From Candidatus Asgardarchaeum abyssi (GTDB lineage Archaea > Asgardarchaeota > Asgardarchaeia > Asgardarchaeales > Asgardarchaeaceae), in contig JBECUL010000022.1 in the NCBI GenBank assembly GCA_040225955.1, positions 1-33,727 of the forward strand: a stretch of 33,727 bases of DNA, written 5' to 3'. The translations under genes were made by a program, and so were the position numbers. Shown piece by piece: positions 14,808 through 25,855 of the stretch; the stretch's first letter is position 1; each line of letters opens with the position of its first letter. The notes under the pieces were generated by a model. That model ran no database searches and had not been told where the DNA came from. It worked only from the letters and a program-made list of their open reading frames with translations.

Positions 14808-16832
14808 GTGTCTGGCATGCTGATTCCTGTGAAAAAATTGACTATTATTACCTTAACCGATTTTGAAGAAGAACTTCTATGGAACTTAGGTAAGCTTGGA
14901 GCTATTCAACTTAAGAAACCGAATGAAGAGGAGCTCCTTGGCTTCGAGAGCACTTCAAGTGAGGAATCGCGAAGATACGAAGAGCTCCTAGATAGGTTTA
15001 ATAATTTATGTAAGTCACTATGTCCCGATGACTATGAGATTTCCAGGAAAGAATCTGTGTTTCAAGAAAAGGAAAGCTTGATTGATATAGAAAAAGTAAT
15101 ATCAGAGTATGAGAATAAGTTAGCCTACATCACAGCAGAATTAAGTAGAAATGAAGAGAGAATTAAGTCATTAAAATTCATGAAAGAAAAACTTAAATTC
15201 CTAAGAAAATATGATGTGGAATCACAAGAAATAAGTTCACTCACTCATCCATTCTCTACAATGGGTACAATGAATAAAAAACATGCAGAAGAGCTAAAAG
15301 AAAAATTTGCCAGGTACTCTCAAATAATTTTCGTTAGAACCTTTGAGTATGACGAGAGCGAGGCATTCGTTTTTATTACATCCCTTGCCGAGTTAAAATC
15401 ACAAATACAAAAAATTTTAACAAGCTACGGCTTTAAAGAGCTAAAAATACCGCCTGAGATCCCACCAAAAGTAGATGAAGCCTTAAAATGGATAGATGAC
15501 GAAATCAAAAAGTCTGAAATAGAAATTAATAAGTTAAGCAAGCAAAAAGAGCTTTTACGTAACGAGTTTATGAAAAATGCATACACTATAAAAAGCAAAC
15601 TCGTGGCATCTTATAGATTGAGTATGGCACAGGAGCAACTCTTAAGGAGCAAATTTATGATAGCTCTTCAAGGTTGGTTGCCAGAAAATAAGGTAAATAA
15701 AGTCTTGAAATTTTTGGAGGATATGAAAGAACACACCGGTGGAAAAATCCTCTATTCTATTGATGAGCCATCCCATGATGAAAAAGTTCCTACCGTTCAA
15801 AAGAATCCAAAAATGTTTAAGGCTCATGAATCATTAATTAGACAATATGGCTCTCCTGGTCCGCATGAAACAGATCCGACGATAATTGGCGGCATTTTGT
15901 GGACTATAATGTTTGGTTTGATGTTTCCTGACTATGGCGAAGGATTTATAATACTTCTACTAGGTATTATCTTTTCTCATGTTTTGAAAGGAAAGACTGT
16001 AATGGGAGTTCCTGCAAAAAAGCTGGGTAACTTAATGATTGGAATGGGCATCTCTGCAATGTTCTTTGGACTTCTGATAGGTGAGTTTTTCCTTATTGAG
16101 GTGGAGCCTTTATGGCCAGGTCTACCACACGGATGGCTTGAAAATCCTTATTATATCCTCTGGCTAATAAAAATAGCTATTTTCTTCGGGATAGCAGAGA
16201 TAACAATAGGCATGTTGATTAATATTCAACGGAATTTGAAACATGGTCATAAAATAGAAGCTATTCTTGGAGAACATGGTTTAGCCGGTTTGATAGGGTT
16301 CTTTGGCATTGTTATATTAGCATTTTCGTTCATAGGTATTCGCATATTACCTCCATTAACTTTACCTACCCCTATCCTTGGGATTTCTAGGCTACCAGCC
16401 ATTGATTTTCCTGAAGCCGATTTAAATAATCTCTTCAATTTGCAAAGAAATTGGAGTATATTCCTTTCGTTAATATTAATAGCCATTGCAGCGGGGGCCC
16501 TATTATATAAATCTATCATTGAAAAAGAAGGAATAATACTAGGTTTTAGTGTAATCTACGAAACAATACTTTCCTTCATAACAAACATGCTATCGTTTGT
16601 GAGAATAGCGGGGTTTGCTATAGCTCATGCAGCTCTTGCAATGGTGGTCATGAAATTATTAGAATATGACTTAATACTGGGTGTAGGTATGGGCCTTATA
16701 TTTCTTAATGCTTTTGCTTTAGCACTTGAACTAATGGTAGTTATTATTCAAGCAACACGTTTGCTTTTCTACGAGTTTCTAACGAAGTTCTATGAAGGAT
16801 CAGGAGAAATGTTTAAACCGTTCAAGCTTTAA
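14808..16832 (+). CDS. atpI: A/V-type ATPase subunit I (a)
   Basis: Soluble N-half, LQGWLP, YGSP...ETDPT, FGLMFPD.GEG, LSFVRIAG with essential Arg, RLLFYEFLTKFYEG.G..F.PF. Confidence 0.95.
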   Translation: MSGMLIPVKKLTIITLTDFEEELLWNLGKLGAIQLKKPNEEELLGFESTSSEESRRYEELLDRFNNLCKSLCPDDYEISRKESVFQEKESLIDIEKVISEYENKLAYITAELSRNEERIKSLKFMKEKLKFLRKYDVESQEISSLTHPFSTMGTMNKKHAEELKEKFARYSQIIFVRTFEYDESEAFVFITSLAELKSQIQKILTSYGFKELKIPPEIPPKVDEALKWIDDEIKKSEIEINKLSKQKELLRNEFMKNAYTIKSKLVASYRLSMAQEQLLRSKFMIALQGWLPENKVNKVLKFLEDMKEHTGGKILYSIDEPSHDEKVPTVQKNPKMFKAHESLIRQYGSPGPHETDPTIIGGILWTIMFGLMFPDYGEGFIILLLGIIFSHVLKGKTVMGVPAKKLGNLMIGMGISAMFFGLLIGEFFLIEVEPLWPGLPHGWLENPYYILWLIKIAIFFGIAEITIGMLINIQRNLKHGHKIEAILGEHGLAGLIGFFGIVILAFSFIGIRILPPLTLPTPILGISRLPAIDFPEADLNNLFNLQRNWSIFLSLILIAIAAGALLYKSIIEKEGIILGFSVIYETILSFITNMLSFVRIAGFAIAHAALAMVVMKLLEYDLILGVGMGLIFLNAFALALELMVVIIQATRLLFYEFLTKFYEGSGEMFKPFKL

Positions 16833-16979
16833 CTTTCTATTTATTTTAAGTGTTTGTAATAAATTATTTCAGTGCTTCCACACTTATTATCCGTAATGAT
16901 TTAGAAAAATAATGTCCATGGGTGAGATTTGTCTTCTTTTAATTCTTAGTGAGACGAAACTTTGTCATGTATGATTATT

Positions 16980-17288
16980 CAAGCTTCTGAGAATTCCTTC
17001 TAGTGCGCGATATGGCACTCTCATCACGTAGTAGATGATTGCGAGGAAGCGAATTAATGAGTCTGGGTATTTAAATGGGTGCCGCGTTTGTAGCAATTCA
17101 TCTTGTTCAATTCGTCGTTCCAGCTGCTGACGAAATCTAGTTCCAAATAGAGCTCTCCACGCCTGACGAGAAGCTCATTATATTCGCTCCAATCTCTTTC
17201 TTTGGACATTGTGGATCGATAAAGAATACGTATGATGGAAAAAATTTTGTCGGCCGATTCATATAACATTGTTTTAATCAACAAAGCA
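16980..17288 (-). mobile_element. truncated IS5-family element (left end plus frameshifted transposase N-terminus)
   Basis: Left end TGCTTTGTTGA at 17288; ATG 17209 MSKERDWSEYNELLVRRGEL..., frameshift near 17080 into PFKYPDSLIRFLAIIYYVMRVPYRALEGILRSL; no DDE domain or right end. Confidence 0.85.
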
Positions 17289-17296
17289 ACTTTATC

Positions 17297-17438
17297 TGCT
17301 TTGTTGACCAAAACATTGTTATATTGAAGTTATGAAATCGGAATTTAGAGCAAGTTATTATGATATCGCATATAACACATTTATCAGCGATACTATTATA
17401 ACATTACGCAACCATTCATTGAATTGTTCAACAAAGCA
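17297..17438. mobile_element. 142-bp MITE related to the IS5-family element
   Basis: Terminal inverted repeats TGCTTTGTTGA / TCAACAAAGCA; flanking direct repeat ACTTTATC at 17289-17296 and 17439-17446; too short to encode a transposase. Confidence 0.88.
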
Positions 17439-17574
17439 ACTTTATCGCAAAATTTTTAACATAACGATGTAATGTCATCAACACGCGCTTTCGTGAAGCC
17501 CTCATATTTTTCCATAAAATTTAATAGAAAGTATCTGTGTAATTATTTTGTCTCCTTAATAAAACTCGAGGTGT

Positions 17575-17904
17575 GTGAAAATGAACACGAGAACATGTAT
17601 GATGATTAGTTTTTTCTTGGCATATGTATCCCTAGTTTTATCATCCTGTCGGGTATTTGCTTATCAGATGACTGCTGAGGAGGCTACGTTTTATGGTTAT
17701 AAATTCATGACGATGGCCATTGCTGTGGCACTGCCAGCTCTTGCTGCGGCTTTTGCTGTAACTAGAACAGGTACCTCTGCTATTGCAAGTATTACAGAAA
17801 AACCAGAACTTTTTGGTAAAACAGTAATTTTCGTAGGTCTTGCTGAAGGTATTGCTATATATGGTCTACTGGTTGCGTTCTTAATTTGGATTACAGGTGC
17901 TTAA
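17575..17904 (+). CDS. atpK: A/V-type ATPase subunit K (c, proteolipid) with N-terminal signal-like helix
   Basis: Single hairpin with EKPELFGK loop and ion-binding Glu in GLAEGIAIYGL. Confidence 0.93.
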   Translation: MKMNTRTCMMISFFLAYVSLVLSSCRVFAYQMTAEEATFYGYKFMTMAIAVALPALAAAFAVTRTGTSAIASITEKPELFGKTVIFVGLAEGIAIYGLLVAFLIWITGA

Positions 17905-18136
17905 CTGGAGCGGTAAGCCCTTGAGTATGGACTATCGAAAAATAAACAAACAGCTTATGAAAATCTACTTTTTTCTTCTTGTTTTGATACAGTTTATTGG
18001 AATATATATTTTCATTTTTTATGTTGAAAAAAATATTCTAACGGTAATATTTTTTGGTCTTCTTCTTGGAGTTTTATGGCCTGTACTATTAGGCTTAGCT
18101 TTAATAAAATATTTCTCGAAAAAAGTAAGAGGGTAA
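17897..18136 (+). CDS. small two-TM membrane protein directly downstream of atpK (alternative start ATG 17927)
   Basis: Two hydrophobic segments bracketed by basic residues; overlaps or abuts the atpK stop and fills the gap to atpC. Confidence 0.6.
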   Translation: MLNWSGKPLSMDYRKINKQLMKIYFFLLVLIQFIGIYIFIFYVEKNILTVIFFGLLLGVLWPVLLGLALIKYFSKKVRG

Positions 18137-18163
18137 TCATAGCAACCCATAAAGAACATAGTC

Positions 18164-19186
18164 TCATTGGATTATAGCATATATTAAATGTGCAATTTTT
18201 TCTTTAGGAGGCACATTAAATTGAGTTGCAATTGTAACAAAGTGCAAATCCCTCATTTCGATCTCTGCTAGAACTACGAAGTAATAAATAAAGGCGATAT
18301 CTATAAATCCCTCTATAATCCCTCTTCTTATATGGCTCCTAATTATTCTATATCCTTCTACCTTGGCTAAGCCATCCTTCCCATCAAGGATTAAACTAAC
18401 AACTTTTTCGTATGGGGCTAAGAGCTCTATGACTTCTTTATTCGATCTAGCAGATATTACGTGTCTTAAAGAGTGTATATTTACTTTGCACGGATATGGT
18501 ATAAATGCGATTTTTATAACCTCTTCAGAATACCTATGTAAGTAACTAGTAGTCGCGTTAAAGACATTTTCTATGTCAACTTCTACACGAACTACGTTCT
18601 CTATGCGTCTTCTACTATTCCTTGGTAGCCTCATCAGCTCTAAGAAAACGTCATCGAAATATTTTTTCTTTAGATAAAACTCCAGTGGGAGAATACTGTC
18701 ATACTTTCTATAAAGTTCTATTACATGCTCTGGTATTTTATAGCCTGTATATTTCATAATTTTAAGTAGTAGTTCCTCAATATTCTTTGCTTCCAGTAAC
18801 TCCTCTATATTGATTCGTAGAAAATAAAATCTAGATATTTTTTCTAAGATTTCGTGAATAGGCGTTTCTGCTTTCTTAAATTTTAGAATATTTATGATAT
18901 TTTCAATATCGAATTTACTAAGGTATGTAGCAATAAAATCTTGAACTCTTTTGGGTGCATCTTTCAAAACTGTTGTTATTCTATCTTCAAAAACCCTATC
19001 GACTATTTTCTTCACGCTAGAAATTGATGGGACTTTTTCTCTTCTAATATACTTTCCATATTCAGTTGGGAAAAGTAGAGTAAGTAAATCTTCAAGATTT
19101 CCAGCAACAGCTAATCCTTTAAGTATGTCTGGTGGAAGAAATTTTGTAATCATGGCGTGCGCTCTTACAATAGGATATTCAGACAT
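18164..19186 (-). CDS. atpC: A/V-type ATPase subunit C (d-like)
   Basis: Y..VRAHAM..K.L, L..T.Y, DIENI..IL, VD..N, E.E.RDL..V pattern; 340 aa; operon context. Confidence 0.88.
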   Translation of the reverse strand: MSEYPIVRAHAMITKFLPPDILKGLAVAGNLEDLLTLLFPTEYGKYIRREKVPSISSVKKIVDRVFEDRITTVLKDAPKRVQDFIATYLSKFDIENIINILKFKKAETPIHEILEKISRFYFLRINIEELLEAKNIEELLLKIMKYTGYKIPEHVIELYRKYDSILPLEFYLKKKYFDDVFLELMRLPRNSRRRIENVVRVEVDIENVFNATTSYLHRYSEEVIKIAFIPYPCKVNIHSLRHVISARSNKEVIELLAPYEKVVSLILDGKDGLAKVEGYRIIRSHIRRGIIEGFIDIAFIYYFVVLAEIEMRDLHFVTIATQFNVPPKEKIAHLIYAIIQ

Positions 19187-19190
19187 AATG

Positions 19191-19823
19191 TTACCTCCTT
19201 CTTTCTAATATTATATCTCTCACAAGTTTTATTCTAGTAAATTCTTCAAGCATATCTTCATCTAATAAATCCTCTATATACTTTAAAGTTTGTTTCATCT
19301 CTGGTATAACTATTTTTTCAAGTGCATTTACCATCCTGTTTGTTCTTTCTAAGTCGTCGGAGACAATCTCTATTTTCATTTCCAACTCACTTAACTTAAT
19401 AATCGTTCTTAGTAGTTCTTTATACTTCTTTGCAATGCCTATAAGGGCTGGTGATATTTTATTTTCTATATTCGGTTCGCTTCTTAGCTTAAGAAATGGT
19501 ACATGTACGCCCATAATACTTTTTGGCAAAATGTAAATATCAACATCTTTTGGAATAGTTGCAGCTTGTGCACTAATAGTACTCTCTCCAAGCAGCGCAT
19601 AAAGTTTTCTAAATTCTTTTAGTACTTCTTTTATCTTTCTCTCATATTCCCGTCTAACTATTTTAAGTTGATCCAAGTCCTCTCTAAGTTTTCTTGTTAA
19701 TTCATCACGTTTCATTTCTAACAACTTATATCCATCTTCGATGTATTTCACTTTCTTTTTAAATTCTAAGTAGAATCCCCTAGTCGGCATTATACGCATT
19801 CCGCGAACAGCCACTTTCTTCAC
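19191..19823 (-). CDS. atpD: A/V-type ATPase subunit D
   Basis: PTR, GYKLLEMKRDEL, IMGVHVP, TNRMVNALEKIVIP, EEFTRIK motifs. Confidence 0.95.
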   Translation of the reverse strand: MKKVAVRGMRIMPTRGFYLEFKKKVKYIEDGYKLLEMKRDELTRKLREDLDQLKIVRREYERKIKEVLKEFRKLYALLGESTISAQAATIPKDVDIYILPKSIMGVHVPFLKLRSEPNIENKISPALIGIAKKYKELLRTIIKLSELEMKIEIVSDDLERTNRMVNALEKIVIPEMKQTLKYIEDLLDEDMLEEFTRIKLVRDIILERRR

Positions 19824-21230
19824 CTAGCTCTCATTTGATATAACCTTTTGTTTATAACGTGGATGATATTTCTTAATGTACTCCTCCTTTATTCGTATTA
19901 AATCATCTTCTGGTAGCATTGCAAGTAAGTCCCATGCGATTTCTAATGTTTTTTCAATTGGTCTATTCTCATACAATCCTTGATTAACAAATCTCTTTTC
20001 AAATGCTTCTGCGAACCTAAGATATTTTATCTCTCTCTCACTTAACCCTACTTCTCCAACTATCCTTACGAGCCCTCTTGCCTTCACACCTTCTGCGTAA
20101 GAGACATATAGCTGGTCAGAAACATTAGGATGATCTTCCCTAGTTCTACCCTTTCCAATACCGTCTTTCATCAGTCTTGATAGAGATGGCAATACGTTTA
20201 TTGGCGGATAGATACCCTTAGCATAAAGTTCTCTATCTAATATCAATTGTCCCTCGGTAATGTATCCACTTAAGTCTGGTATAGGATGCGTTATATCTCC
20301 GCCAGGCATCGTTAAAATAGGCATCAGTGTAACTGAACCTTTTTTACCCTTTATTTTTCCTGCTCTTTCATAAATTGTTGCTAAGTCAGAGTATAAATAT
20401 CCTGGATATCCTTTTCTAGCTGGGACCTCCTCTCGAGCTACTGATATCGATCTGAGCGCTTCCGCATAATTTGTCATATCTGTAATGATTGTCAGAATGT
20501 GCATATCTAATTCAAAAGCTAAATATTCTGCAATAGTAAGTGCAACCCTCGGTGCAACTATACGTTCAATAACAGGGTCATCAGCTAGGTTCAATATCAT
20601 AACAGATCGGTTCAGTGCTCCTGTTTTTTCAAATTCGGATTTGAAATACTCAAATTCTTCATGTTTAATTCCGAGCGCTGCGAAAACTATAGCAAAATCT
20701 TCTTCTTTGCCTGGAATTGTTGCTTGCCTAGCAACCTGCGCTGCTATTTGATTATGTGGTAATCCTGCTTCTGAGAAGATTGGTAGCTTCTGCCCTCTAA
20801 TTAGAGAGTTCATACCATCTATTGCAGAAATTCCTGTTTGAATAAATTCACTAGGAGGTTCCCTTGCTGCAGGGTTTATTACTGATCCGAAAACTTCTCT
20901 TTCCTCTTCTCCTATAGGCTCTGGCAACCTATCCAGCGGCTTAAAGTCACCACTAAAAATTCTGCCTATAACATCCTCAGATAATGGTATCTTCATAACT
21001 TCTCCAGTAAATCTAATACCGACATCAAGATTAAGCCCCTCAGTCTCTCCAAAAACCTGAACTATGGCTCTATCCTTCGACACATCAAGAACACTACCTA
21101 TGATTTCTGTACCGCCGCTGAGCTTTATTTCTACAACTTCGTTGTATCCAACGCCATGAACTCCTGTAACTACTAATAAAGGTCCTTTAATTTCTTTAAC
21201 TGTCCTATAAATTAATCCTGATTTCTCCAT
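19824..21230 (-). CDS. atpB: A/V-type ATPase subunit B
   Basis: [68 protein letters not shown]. Confidence 0.98.
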
Positions 21231-21242
21231 TATGCCCCCTCC

Positions 21243-24200
21243 TTAAATAGTAACCGTAATTTCATATTCTCTTGCCAAAGATAGGATCTCGTTACGTCCC
21301 TCACTTATTATTTTATCAATCCAATCAATCTCTGGATGTTCTCGCATACGCTTCAGATTCACTATTGTTCTCAGCTCTCTGATTTTCTCTATTGGCACGC
21401 CCTTATCAACTAATGGCTTCACCATCTCATAAAATTCAATAATTGCTTTTAACATAGTTACTTGTTTCTTAGGGTCACAGTACGTGTCTACTTCGTGGAA
21501 TGCATTTTGAAATAGAAATCCTTCTCTTAGAATCTCTGAAATTAAGAGGATTAATCTCTGATCATCAGGAAGTGCTTTTTCGCCTATGACTCTTGCAGTC
21601 TCTTCTATCTTAGAAGCCTCCTCTAATATTCCCATGGCTCTTTTTCTTAAGTCTATCCACGTTGGCTCGTGTTGTTTCCAGAATACGCTTAGAATATCAA
21701 TATATTTGCTAAAACTCAAAAGCCAGTTAATTGCTGGGAAATGTCTTCTAAAAGCAAGTTCCTTGTCTAAAGCCCATAATGTACCAACAAATCTTATAGT
21801 TATTGAGGTTACAGGTTCACTAAAATCAGCACCTGGAGGTGACACAGCACCCATTATTGTTAACGATCCCTTTCTAGGTTTACTTCCTAATGTTAGTACT
21901 AATCCAGCTCTCTCATAAAACTCAGCAATTCTCTCTGCAAGATAAGCGGGGTATCCCCTCTCGACCGGAATTTCTTCTAAACGTCCAGAAATATCTCGTA
22001 ATGCCTCAGCCCATCTTGAAGTGGAATCAGCCATAAGAGCTACATGGTATCCCTGATCCCTATAATATTCTGCAATTGTCACACCCATGTAAATACTCGC
22101 TTCTCTAGCAAAGACTGGCAAATTGCTAACATTTGCTATAAAAATAGATCTTTCGTCAAGTCTCTTCCCAGTACGAGGGTCTTTCAGTGATGGGAAGTGT
22201 GTAATAACATCTGCCATCTCGTTTCCTCTTTCTCCACATCCAATATATACAATTATATCAGCATCTGACCATTTCGCCAACTGGTGTAATGTAACCGTAT
22301 TATGTAAAATTATCGGAATTTCACCGCCTACAAAGTTATGAGTATCCTCTACAGTTATGTCGTAGACTTCATATTCTTTTTCAATTATTTTTATTTCTTT
22401 TATTGGATCTAAATATATCCACTCAAAGGCTTGTACAAGGTTTAGTAGGTGCTCATCCTTAGTAGTTTCAGCTAATTTTAATAGAGACGTGGAGGTTAAC
22501 TTTTCATTCCTTTTTATGTAATTCTGTATCCATATCTCGTGATTTTCAAGATATCTCCTAGAGAATCCTTTAACTATCTCCTTAAGGGCGTCAGAACTTA
22601 TTGGAACAATGTCTCTAGTTATTCGACCACCCGCTTTTGATTCAAGATATTCATAGACAGTTAAAACCTTATCTAAATTAGGTGAATTTTGCAGTACAAT
22701 CCTCGCAAACTTTGAAATCTCTTTTTTCCCGCTAATTATTATTCTATACTGATAGTCGTCGTTTTGTGATTTTCTCCTCGATACCGTATATAATATGCCC
22801 AATATAGATAGAAGGTAAGATAGTCCCTCTACTAATTTGCGAGATGCTGACGAAATCTCTATAGCACTTTTGTCAAAAGTCCCATCGCCTAGATAATATC
22901 CTCTTATAAATGCAGCAATAACGTTCTTAGGAGATCTTAATACGATTTTCGGAACTATAACATTTCTAGATTTTCTTTTCGATGGAATATCTAACTTCTG
23001 AAGAAGCTTAACGAGAATTGTGGATCTTATAGTAAGCCCTCTAACTGTTTTAAAGATCATGGCTTTTGGTTTAATATCAAATAGTTGTTCGCTTAGCTCA
23101 ATAAATCTATCTAATAGTAAATTATTGTTGTTGAAGAATCTTAACTCCTTCTTTGTTATCATTCCATCAGATAAAAGTAGACCTAGGAACTCTGCAAAAT
23201 CTTCATTAAATGTTTCAGGAACTCTGATCTCTTTTTTGCTTCTGGTAATAGAAATTCTTGAGATTGGCGGTTTTGGTTGATTTGCTAAGTTATATAACCG
23301 TTCGATGAATCTAACAGTTGGATAGTTTTTTCCAGTATAATAACTTATAAGTTGATCATAAGACACATCCAAAAGTTTTGCTATTTTCTTCTTTCCGTGA
23401 TATTTCTTAGCTAGCACATCAATTAACTCAATGACATCTTTTAATAATTCTTTATCTCTTACCCTTGCCTCTGGTAAAAGATCATATACATTTATTTCTA
23501 AATATGTTCCCTCATTTATTATTGGTATACACCTAGGAACTGCTATATAATCACCTTCTTTTAGGTAAATAGCGGGCTTTTCCTCAAAGTATCCTTCTGG
23601 GTTAAACACAATCAATTTATGCGCTGGGGTAACTTTTATATCTCTTCCACCTCTTGTTCTAATTGCAACAATTTTATCCGTTTTGCCCTTGTATATGTGA
23701 GTAGCTCTCTTAAATACCATCTTAGTTCCATCAAATGAGATCACACGTATATTTTCTAACTCGCCTATCTCTTCTTCCCCATCTTTAATTATATTTTTAG
23801 CCATCCTATAGAAGTGTTCTATCGGCACTAATTCACCACTATCTAGCAAAACTGGCGTTCCAGGCAGTACACATTTACCTGTTCCAAATCCTCCAGGAAT
23901 TGCACCAGTTCCGCCTTTTGCAATTGGGAAGAATGTATCTATTACTCTTTGACCAGTAATTAAAGGTTCAACTAATGGAAGTCTTGCTTTAACAGGTCTT
24001 GGTCTTCTTACAGGCCAAGTCTGCATCATTGTTAGCTCCTTCTTCTCACCAGAAGGTGTCCTTAAAATGGCTACTGGCTCTGTAATTGTAAACTTTCCTT
24101 CGTATATCTCCTCAATTGTCCCTTCCAAGTCGAGTGGTACCATTATTCTGTGTGTTATAGCAGATGTTTCTGGTACTGTCCCTATAATGTCACCACCAAC

Positions 24201-24587
24201 TACTTTATCGCCTTTTTTAACAGTTGGTGTAAACTCCCATTTTTTATCTCTATCCAGCGGTGTTATCTTTACACCCTTTTTGATAAATGGTCCTGTTAAT
24301 TCCCATAACTTTAATTCTGAAATCTCTAGTCCATCAAAAATTCCACCCAAAAGTCCAGGACCAAGTTCAGCAACTAATGGTTTTTCGGTGTTTATGACAA
24401 CATCTCCTGGACGAAGACCACTAGTATCCTCATAACATTGTATTGCAACCTTGTTACCAAAAATCCTTACAATTTCTCCTATAAGCTTCATCTCACCTAA
24501 ATGTGTAATGTCTCCGATTTTTGCATTTGGAACATTTTCGGCTATTACTAATGAGCCGTTAATCCTAACAATATTACCTTCTGCCAT
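21243..24587 (-). CDS. atpA: A/V-type ATPase subunit A, intein-containing (589 aa after splicing)
   Basis: [16 protein letters not shown]|[37 protein letters not shown] motifs. Confidence 0.98.
22299..23873 (-). mobile_element. intein (525 aa) with LAGLIDADG homing endonuclease in the AtpA P-loop
   Basis: Begins CVLPGT after GTGK; block B VTPAHK; LAGLIDADG-like FLGLLLSDG and [10 protein letters not shown]; block F VYDITV..HNF; ends ILHN before T(+1). Confidence 0.96.
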
Positions 24588-24594
24588 AACCTCA

Positions 24595-25227
24595 TCACAA
24601 CTCCTGTGATAATAATACTTTTCCTATAAGCAGTCTTAACTTTCTTTTCATCTTAAAAACTCTATCCTCTAAAGTGTTATAATACGTCTTAAGGCCATCT
24701 TCGCTTTCAGCTACAACGCCACCTATGGCCCTTGGTAAAATCCTTCCAATTTTTAAGTTGATCTTTCTTCCAACATCTCTTGACAATTTTTCCTCCAGCA
24801 CCCTCAGATTTCTCTTTATATATTCTAAATCTTTCTGATTTGCGTGAATTACTACTGTATCCTCCCTTATATTGCTGACTGCCTCTTTGAGAAGAGAATA
24901 GAATATTTTCTCGTAGTTGTAATCTCCTCTTTCTCCACTAGCTACCTTTTTAATCTCATTTAAGACCCCATCAAGGACCTTTTCTACGATTTCCTCCTTT
25001 GCTTTTAATAATTCTGTTCTACCTTCAACCTCGGCTCTTCCAATAATTCGTCTTCTAATTAATGCAACCTCGGCTCGAGCTCGATCCATAAATAGTTTAT
25101 CAACCTTACGTTTTGCCTCCTCGATTATGTTTTTTGCCCTTTCTTCTGCAGATTTAATAGTCTCTTGTATCTCTTTCTCTGCTCTTTTTCTAATCTCAGA
25201 GATCAATACTTCTACGGCCTCACTCAA
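24595..25227 (-). CDS. atpE: A/V-type ATPase subunit E
   Basis: N-terminal coiled coil, IGGVVAES.DG..YYNTLE.R C-terminal motif. Confidence 0.92.
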   Translation of the reverse strand: MSEAVEVLISEIRKRAEKEIQETIKSAEERAKNIIEEAKRKVDKLFMDRARAEVALIRRRIIGRAEVEGRTELLKAKEEIVEKVLDGVLNEIKKVASGERGDYNYEKIFYSLLKEAVSNIREDTVVIHANQKDLEYIKRNLRVLEEKLSRDVGRKINLKIGRILPRAIGGVVAESEDGLKTYYNTLEDRVFKMKRKLRLLIGKVLLSQEL

Positions 25228-25525
25228 CTTTTAAAACCTCCTTTAGAGCAACCTCTACTGCCTCTCTTATTTTATCATCTGGAATGGACCTAATTTTGGA
25301 AGCTCTTTCTAAATATCTCTCTTTTACTTTTTTTGCCTCCATTTTGATAATTTCCTCTTGTTCCTCAAGGTATTTCCTCAGTCCCTCTTCAATGTTTTTT
25401 TCATTGAGAATTCTTTTTTCCTCCTCATGAGCCTTTGCAAGTATCTCATCAGCCTTCTTTTTTGCTTCTTCTATCCTTTTTGTTGCTTCTATTTCCTCCA
25501 AAATCAATTTTTCGAGATCACTCAT
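25220..25525 (-). CDS. atpH: A/V-type ATPase subunit H/G (peripheral stalk)
   Basis: 101-aa E/K/A-rich coiled coil overlapping the atpE start. Confidence 0.8.
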   Translation of the reverse strand: MSDLEKLILEEIEATKRIEEAKKKADEILAKAHEEEKRILNEKNIEEGLRKYLEEQEEIIKMEAKKVKERYLERASKIRSIPDDKIREAVEVALKEVLKVE

Positions 25526-25537
25526 CCTAAAACCCCT

Positions 25538-25855
25538 TTATAGTTTTAATTTAATACCAACAGCTAGTGAAATTCTTTTCTTTAACTCCTCTAAACGCTT
25601 TCCAGAAATTCCAGTATAGTCTGGAAGAAAAGCAAAAAGAGGGCTTACTTGTCCACTCTTTATTACTTTATCTCTAATGTCCCGTGTATCGTCAACAAAT
25701 CTCTCGGGAAGAATGATCACCGCATAATCCCTACTTTCAATTAACCTATTAAGAATTTTTCTAATCTCACGGATGTCCTCAGTTACAAAACCTTCGCAGC
25801 CTATGAGTTCAAATCCTCTGACAAATGTTGGGTCTCCAATAACCGCTACTTTCAT
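25538..25855 (-). CDS. atpF: A/V-type ATPase subunit F
   Basis: MKVAVIGD..FVRGF.LIG, YAVII, C-terminal AVGIKL. Confidence 0.93.
   Translation of the reverse strand: MKVAVIGDPTFVRGFELIGCEGFVTEDIREIRKILNRLIESRDYAVIILPERFVDDTRDIRDKVIKSGQVSPLFAFLPDYTGISGKRLEELKKRISLAVGIKLKL

Follow-up and report, generated by a model that had tools for sequence, protein, structure and literature searches.

In Candidatus Asgardarchaeum abyssi, a gene for a 79-residue protein lies directly after the proteolipid gene atpK. It most probably (at roughly 0.9, by our estimate) encodes a dedicated small accessory of the Ao membrane sector in a single clade of Asgard A/V-type ATP synthases. The gene, here called gene X, was found in a stretch of 33,727 nucleotides (the window). 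A part in c-ring assembly or stabilisation, the favoured role, has about an even chance of being right. The original prediction had described a small ATPase-coupled helper akin to Vma21, subunit e or UncI. The extra two-helix gene and its tie to the membrane sector (20 of 20 loci) were recovered, but the kinship was not. The usual description of archaeal A-type ATPases gives them nine subunits and no dedicated assembly helper. Small accessory genes in rotary-ATPase operons are an already known kind; what is new here is an unnamed hairpin family that keeps strictly to the membrane-sector genes in a single clade of Asgard ATPases.

Gene X and the surrounding ATPase locus

The ATPase set of the window was complete, with all nine standard subunits encoded (I, K, C, D, B, A, E, G/H and F, with A identified from its translation). 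Gene X is therefore extra, in agreement with the original prediction. The genes form two converging blocks, with I, K and X on the forward strand and the remaining subunits on the reverse strand (Table 1), and atpC converges on gene X.

Table 1. Features of the ATPase locus in the window and of loci in other Asgard genomes. Positions without a prefix are those of the window.
Feature	Position	Strand	Basis or remark
atpI, subunit a	14808-16832	+	PF01496, 9e-25
atpI-atpK gap, ~740 bp	16833-17574		mobile-element remnants
ORF in the gap	17054-17311	-	
20-bp hairpin in the gap	17270-17315		
145-bp repeat in the gap	17296-17440		MITE-like
atpK, c subunit, one hairpin (E91) behind a signal-peptide-like N-terminal helix	17575-17904	+	PF00137, 1e-15
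Gene X, two-helix membrane hairpin protein, 79 aa	17897-18136	+	ORF, homologues, dN/dS, AlphaFold2
Other subunits, read F, G/H, E, A (with intein), B, D, C	18164-25855	-	convergent block; same layout, Pfam-labelled, in L001
atpA, 1114 aa	21243-24587	-	intein with LAGLIDADG endonuclease; also in L001
f8 two-helix and Zn-ribbon gene, right after atpI	L085:18856-19299; L182-L211		
f13 two-helix ORF next to atpK	L089:9525-9818	-	
f4 two-helix ORF with Zn ribbon	L080:9079-9405	+	
f11 giant c subunits	L087:7875-11318 (G010); G059:C17, G021:C7, G051:C92, G042:C21		

The gene X ORF opens with a GTG inside atpK, so that the two genes share 8 nt; an alternative internal ATG at 17927 would give a product of 69 aa. 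Both the GTG and the overlap were kept in two relatives (L002 and L004), and the internal ATG was gone from L002, which favours the GTG start. The dN/dS of gene X was 0.26 against L002 (a relative 71% identical), with 0.25 for the mature part of atpK, and 0.07 in a second pair. With these values, and with homologues down to 23% identity, gene X was judged to be more than a chance ORF. It is a real gene under purifying selection, and the predicted ORF of 69-79 aa directly after the proteolipid gene was thereby borne out. In the one RNA run found (X1) the reads reached neither atpK nor gene X, and the run is uninformative on expression. A scan for bacterial promoters, the wrong type for an archaeal host, was at chance level.

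The gap between atpI and atpK, ~740 bp here and ~110 bp in L002, is swollen by mobile-element remnants. It holds a 20-bp hairpin and a 145-bp repeat with 16 matches of at least 120 bp in the genome. A short ORF in the gap contains the stretch 'WSEYNELLVRRGEL', which by eye resembles the start of an IS5/IS903 transposase; Pfam gave no confirmation. Most Njordarchaeia carry I-K-X-D-C, the commonest order among the X loci, on a single strand, and the split converging layout is thus lineage-specific. The tail-to-tail arrangement of I-K-X and the other subunits (14808-25855) was also seen in close relatives of this genome and in L035; in G058 it is C that converges on X. The extra signal-peptide-like N-terminal helix of AtpK is common to most of the Asgard K proteins aligned. 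E91 of AtpK is followed by Gly and not by Ser or Thr, which, by the known Na+ motif, we take to suggest proton coupling.

Linkage to the membrane sector and the proposed role

Homologues of protein X were collected by sequence searches blind to gene context, and not by position. The 24 aligned sequences were between 23% and 70% identical to protein X, which founds an unnamed family. Counted within 400 Asgardarchaeota genomes, X was present as one copy per genome in this genome (G000), in six of seven f19 genomes (labelled Njordarchaeales), in all five of f16 and in the one of f32. The sole f19 genome without X is 66% complete and had no atpK match either. The labels carried by f16 genomes (Crenarchaeota, Thermoproteota or Nitrososphaerota) would fit Panguiarchaeum, which is now classed in Njordarchaeia (10.1101/2025.02.13.637844). 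Among these genomes the family thus occurs in the lineage of G000 and in Njordarchaeia; members outside Asgard archaea may exist, since 1.8 billion proteins were searched with the single protein X. Weak matches in Loki and other genomes were dismissed, since they were long transporters or stop-containing frames and none lay near atp genes.

Flanking DNA was available for 20 distinct members, and every one of them lay directly downstream of atpK (15 members) or atpI (five members) on the same strand, an association of gene neighbourhood and not a mechanism. This upholds the expected presence of homologues beside atpK in relatives. The K-X junction was overlapping or abutting in several members. 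X remained with atpK in two loci where genes had been inserted between atpI and atpK (L035 and L076) and in two where atpI was elsewhere (L036 and L050). In four f16 genomes and in P0007, atpK was relocated and X lay behind atpI. Gene X could instead be a passenger without an ATPase role, as operons can carry passengers, or could supply ions such as Mg2+ to the ATPase, for which AtpZ of Bacillus, tied to Mg2+ uptake, is a precedent (PMC4453477). A passenger would not be expected to keep its place beside atpK or atpI despite inversions and insertions, as gene X does in 20 of 20 cases. Ion supply is at odds with the family alignment, in which no conserved acidic residue was seen in the loop or the helices. 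We consider either of these two readings improbable.

All X-bearing ATPases formed a single long-stemmed clade in quick trees of subunit I and of subunit C (SH-aLRT 99 in both), and X is therefore a marker of one ATPase clade. In a tree of four ribosomal proteins, f19, f16 and f32 grouped at 100/100 and G000 stood alone, outside Njordarchaeia; its close relatives bear the NCBI label 'Odinarchaeota archaeon'. In the subunit I and C trees, by contrast, G000 fell inside the X clade, together with Njordarchaeia. This discordance suggests a possible horizontal transfer of the ATPase operon between Njordarchaeia and the lineage of G000. An AU test on subunit C did not reject monophyly of the Njordarchaeia (p 0.27), and the direction and nesting of such a transfer were not established.

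The AlphaFold2 model of protein X (mean pLDDT 82) consisted of helices 11-42 and 47-78 joined by a 4-residue loop, as expected from the two transmembrane helices and short loop originally described. Across the family, the mean number of K and R residues was 4.2 in the N-terminal flank, 1.0 in the loop and 3.3 in the C-terminal flank. Since basic residues flank both helices, both ends are predicted by the positive-inside rule to be cytoplasmic (N-in/C-in). Four residues were invariant in the 24 sequences, namely Y24, L28 and Q32 in helix 1 and P62 in helix 2, giving the signature Y-x3-L-x3-Q...P. N17 (83%), F25 (92%) and G35 (79%) were also conserved, and residue 58 was small in all members. 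The conserved helix 1 residues Y13, N17, Y24, L28, Q32 and G35 share one helical face. By an argument from register, and not from coordinates, Q32, the small residue 58 and P62 are probably opposed across the hairpin and lock it together. The invariant residues may serve packing of the hairpin alone and not a partner surface.

The favoured role is that of a c-ring assembly or stabilisation helper, since the tie to atpK outlasts more rearrangements than that to atpI, and since operon-encoded UncI and the hairpin protein Vma21p act on c-rings. The overlap with atpK would couple translation, so that X would be made as c subunits are made, though probably in lower amount because of its GTG start. 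The protein would insert with both ends in the cytoplasm, its hairpin probably locked by the three residues named above. It would then pack against c subunits and help the ring to form, or to hold until subunit a joins. In this respect X would work like UncI, the AtpQ/AtpZ-slot proteins or Vma21, without demonstrable membership in any of these families. The function of the AtpQ/AtpZ-slot proteins is itself unsettled, which limits the analogy.

As the main alternative, X could be a small and permanent component of the stator, packed on the membrane domain of subunit a in the manner of eukaryotic subunits e and f; this seems possible but doubtful. The five members with X behind atpI fit a partner of subunit a equally well, and the strict association of X with a single ATPase clade would suit it too. 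A parallel is offered by subunit f, which has two helices, binds subunit a and can be dispensed with in yeast (PMC7414150). The single conserved face of helix 1 would also suit such a partner, although packing within the hairpin can explain it. Two points speak against a stator subunit: the link of X to atpK has persisted through a larger number of independent rearrangements than its link to atpI, and X matched neither PF05493 nor the Vo chains of the PDB. Prediction of a complex of subunit a (residues 334-674), three K and X gave a score of 0.00, which is evidence neither way.

Relationship to Vma21, subunit e and UncI

None of the 24 family members matched PF09446 (VMA21), PF05493 (ATP_synt_H), PF03899 (ATP-synt_I) or PF09527 (ATPase_gene1) at E<=10, in searches where most weak hits are removed by the filters of HMMER. 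Genome-wide searches with the same four models did not match gene X, and the VMA21 model produced only off-frame noise away from it. A search of the X profile against all PDB chains found no Vo subunit and no Vma21, and an NCBIfam search with the family returned nothing specific. The proposed kinship with Vma21, subunit e or UncI was therefore not supported. Matches to Pfam Vma12 (E 0.07-0.3, two to three members) were rejected because they sat among many unrelated membrane families. Fold searches with the hairpin (Foldseek against the PDB, an Atlas shape search and two further searches) recovered generic hairpins only, with a best Z of 8.1 among 9369 chains at Z of at least 2. No V-ATPase chain was listed, but a plain hairpin matches thousands equally, so nothing is excluded by this result. 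ESM Atlas feature searches reached at best 0.80-0.82, which is the noise level.

Like X, Vma21p is a helical hairpin (the VMA21 family has ~77-80 aa), but a hairpin of ~77 aa is a generic feature. Vma21p is associated with the c-ring, wedged between c subunits, and in yeast it ends in the dilysine ER-retrieval motif KKED (PMC9963935). Vma21 is further characterised by transient binding at the outside of the c-ring and by being required for assembly of Vo. Protein X differs in being prokaryotic and operon-encoded and in lacking a match by HMM or PDB sequence. Its tail had been described as not canonically dilysine, and this was confirmed across the family, where KKxx ended two of the 24 members and KxKxx none; such a tail is not expected in a prokaryote, which makes its absence a weak test. 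The resemblance to Vma21 seen by eye in the pattern INKQLM...NIL...G did not hold up either, as N17 was conserved (83%) whereas K18, Q19, L20, M21 and the N-I-L residues varied freely.

UncI proteins have about 100-130 aa and some four helices, and their Pfam model has 99 positions. X differs from them in having 79 aa and two helices and in its lack of a match. The likeness lies in an operon-encoded membrane accessory beside the c-subunit gene, which for UncI is described as assisting c-ring assembly (Suzuki 2007, as cited in PMC2881411 and PMC4453477). A c-ring assembly helper, as originally claimed, is still the single most likely function of X, though membership in the Vma21 or UncI families is not supported. 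X may work like either of them while failing the sequence tests of membership.

Subunits e (PF05493) and f (RNASEK / YPR170W-B) are two-helix membrane-sector proteins of 70-90 aa bound to subunit a; X resembles them in size and helix number but has no sequence match, and it is a candidate partner of subunit a. Plant subunit e is reported to have a cytosolic tail (PMC9280200), and X is predicted to be N-in/C-in. Solved structures of subunit e have luminal ends.

The strongest form of the original prediction made X an archaeal precursor of the eukaryotic Vo assembly machinery, that is, a true homologue of Vma21 or subunit e. Its size, its two helices, its tie to the proteolipid gene and its Asgard host are as such a homologue would have them, and the V-ATPase of eukaryotes has an affinity to Asgard archaea (10.1101/2023.04.11.536006). 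Divergence can also carry short hydrophobic proteins beyond detection, which tempers the absence of a match. Against this, none of the 24 members was reported against VMA21 or ATP_synt_H, the VMA21 matches in the genome were noise elsewhere, and neither the motif seen by eye nor a dilysine tail is a conserved feature of the family. The precursor claim is unsupported: the distribution of the family is narrow, and an AtpZ-like gene takes its place in other lineages, the Heimdallarchaeota-labelled f23 among them. We therefore regard such ancestry as very unlikely, and the same low standing applies to X as a homologue of Vma21, subunit e or subunit f that has diverged beyond detection. If true, it would place a Vo-type assembly factor or a tenth subunit in Asgard archaea before eukaryotes. 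In the literature searched, no paper paired 'Asgard' with 'Vma21', and V-ATPase parts go unmentioned in PMC12962969.

The same operon slot in other Asgard lineages

A small gene for a two-helix protein also adjoins I, K or C in other Asgard lineages. In most of them the slot of X is filled by a glycine-rich AtpZ/AtpQ-like family, found in 137 of 400 genomes and related to ATPase_gene1 (PF09527; matched by six of 14 members, best E 5e-8). In the 400-genome search this family was not found in G000, f19 or f32, and the lone match in f16 was weak and lay inside a 414-aa frame. A third slot family, an unnamed hairpin with a Zn ribbon, occurred in the Lokiarchaeota-labelled f8 (93 of 103 genomes) and adjoined atpI in all 30 cases examined. 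X was essentially never found together with the AtpZ-like or the Loki hairpin gene, a mutual exclusion that amounts to about three clades and not to hundreds of independent genomes.

X might be a strongly diverged orthologue of the Asgard AtpZ/AtpQ-like slot gene. Both are small two-helix products within a rotary-ATPase operon (AtpQ/AtpZ being known as 'gene 1'), with the same size, predicted topology and neighbourhood and a mutually exclusive distribution. However, the hhalign probability between X and the Asgard AtpZ-like set was 17.6%, covering helix 2 only, which is no better than the 18.9% of an unrelated two-helix control, whereas distant true AtpZ-like members were still recognised at 63-93%. 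Cross-HMM scores were below 10 bits in both directions. X lacks the glycine-rich helices, with 0-4 Gly over both helices as against 6-14 per Asgard AtpZ-like protein and the near-invariant G36, G54 and G58 of that set, and it has its own signature. Such an origin is thus unlikely, though less so than common ancestry with Vma21 or subunit e; otherwise X would have arisen independently. Homology of X and the Loki hairpin family was rejected, because their hhalign probability of 40.7% was equalled by 16 of 60 local column shuffles. From these comparisons the slot pattern appears to be one of non-orthologous replacement or of divergence beyond detection.

The presence of at least three unrelated-looking hairpin families in one slot across Asgard archaea suggests that Ao generally needs a small hairpin partner, a requirement that has been overlooked. 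The slot families are concrete candidates for the origin of the small eukaryotic Vo proteins (Vma21, e and f). X, with the function that we infer for it, is not the best placed among them, since it is narrowly distributed and the Heimdallarchaeota-labelled f23 has K followed by an AtpZ-like gene.

More distinct two-helix ORFs were seen beside atpK in f13 and f4, and that of f4 converges on K. Some Asgard genomes had two atpI and/or several atpK genes, at L144 (G002), L090 (G028) and L091/L092 (G040). In genomes with multiple atpK, each K often had its own AtpZ-like gene. Giant concatemeric c subunits were found in f11. The largest, at 1149 aa, has ~14 hairpin matches within a single frame, possibly a whole c-ring in one polypeptide.
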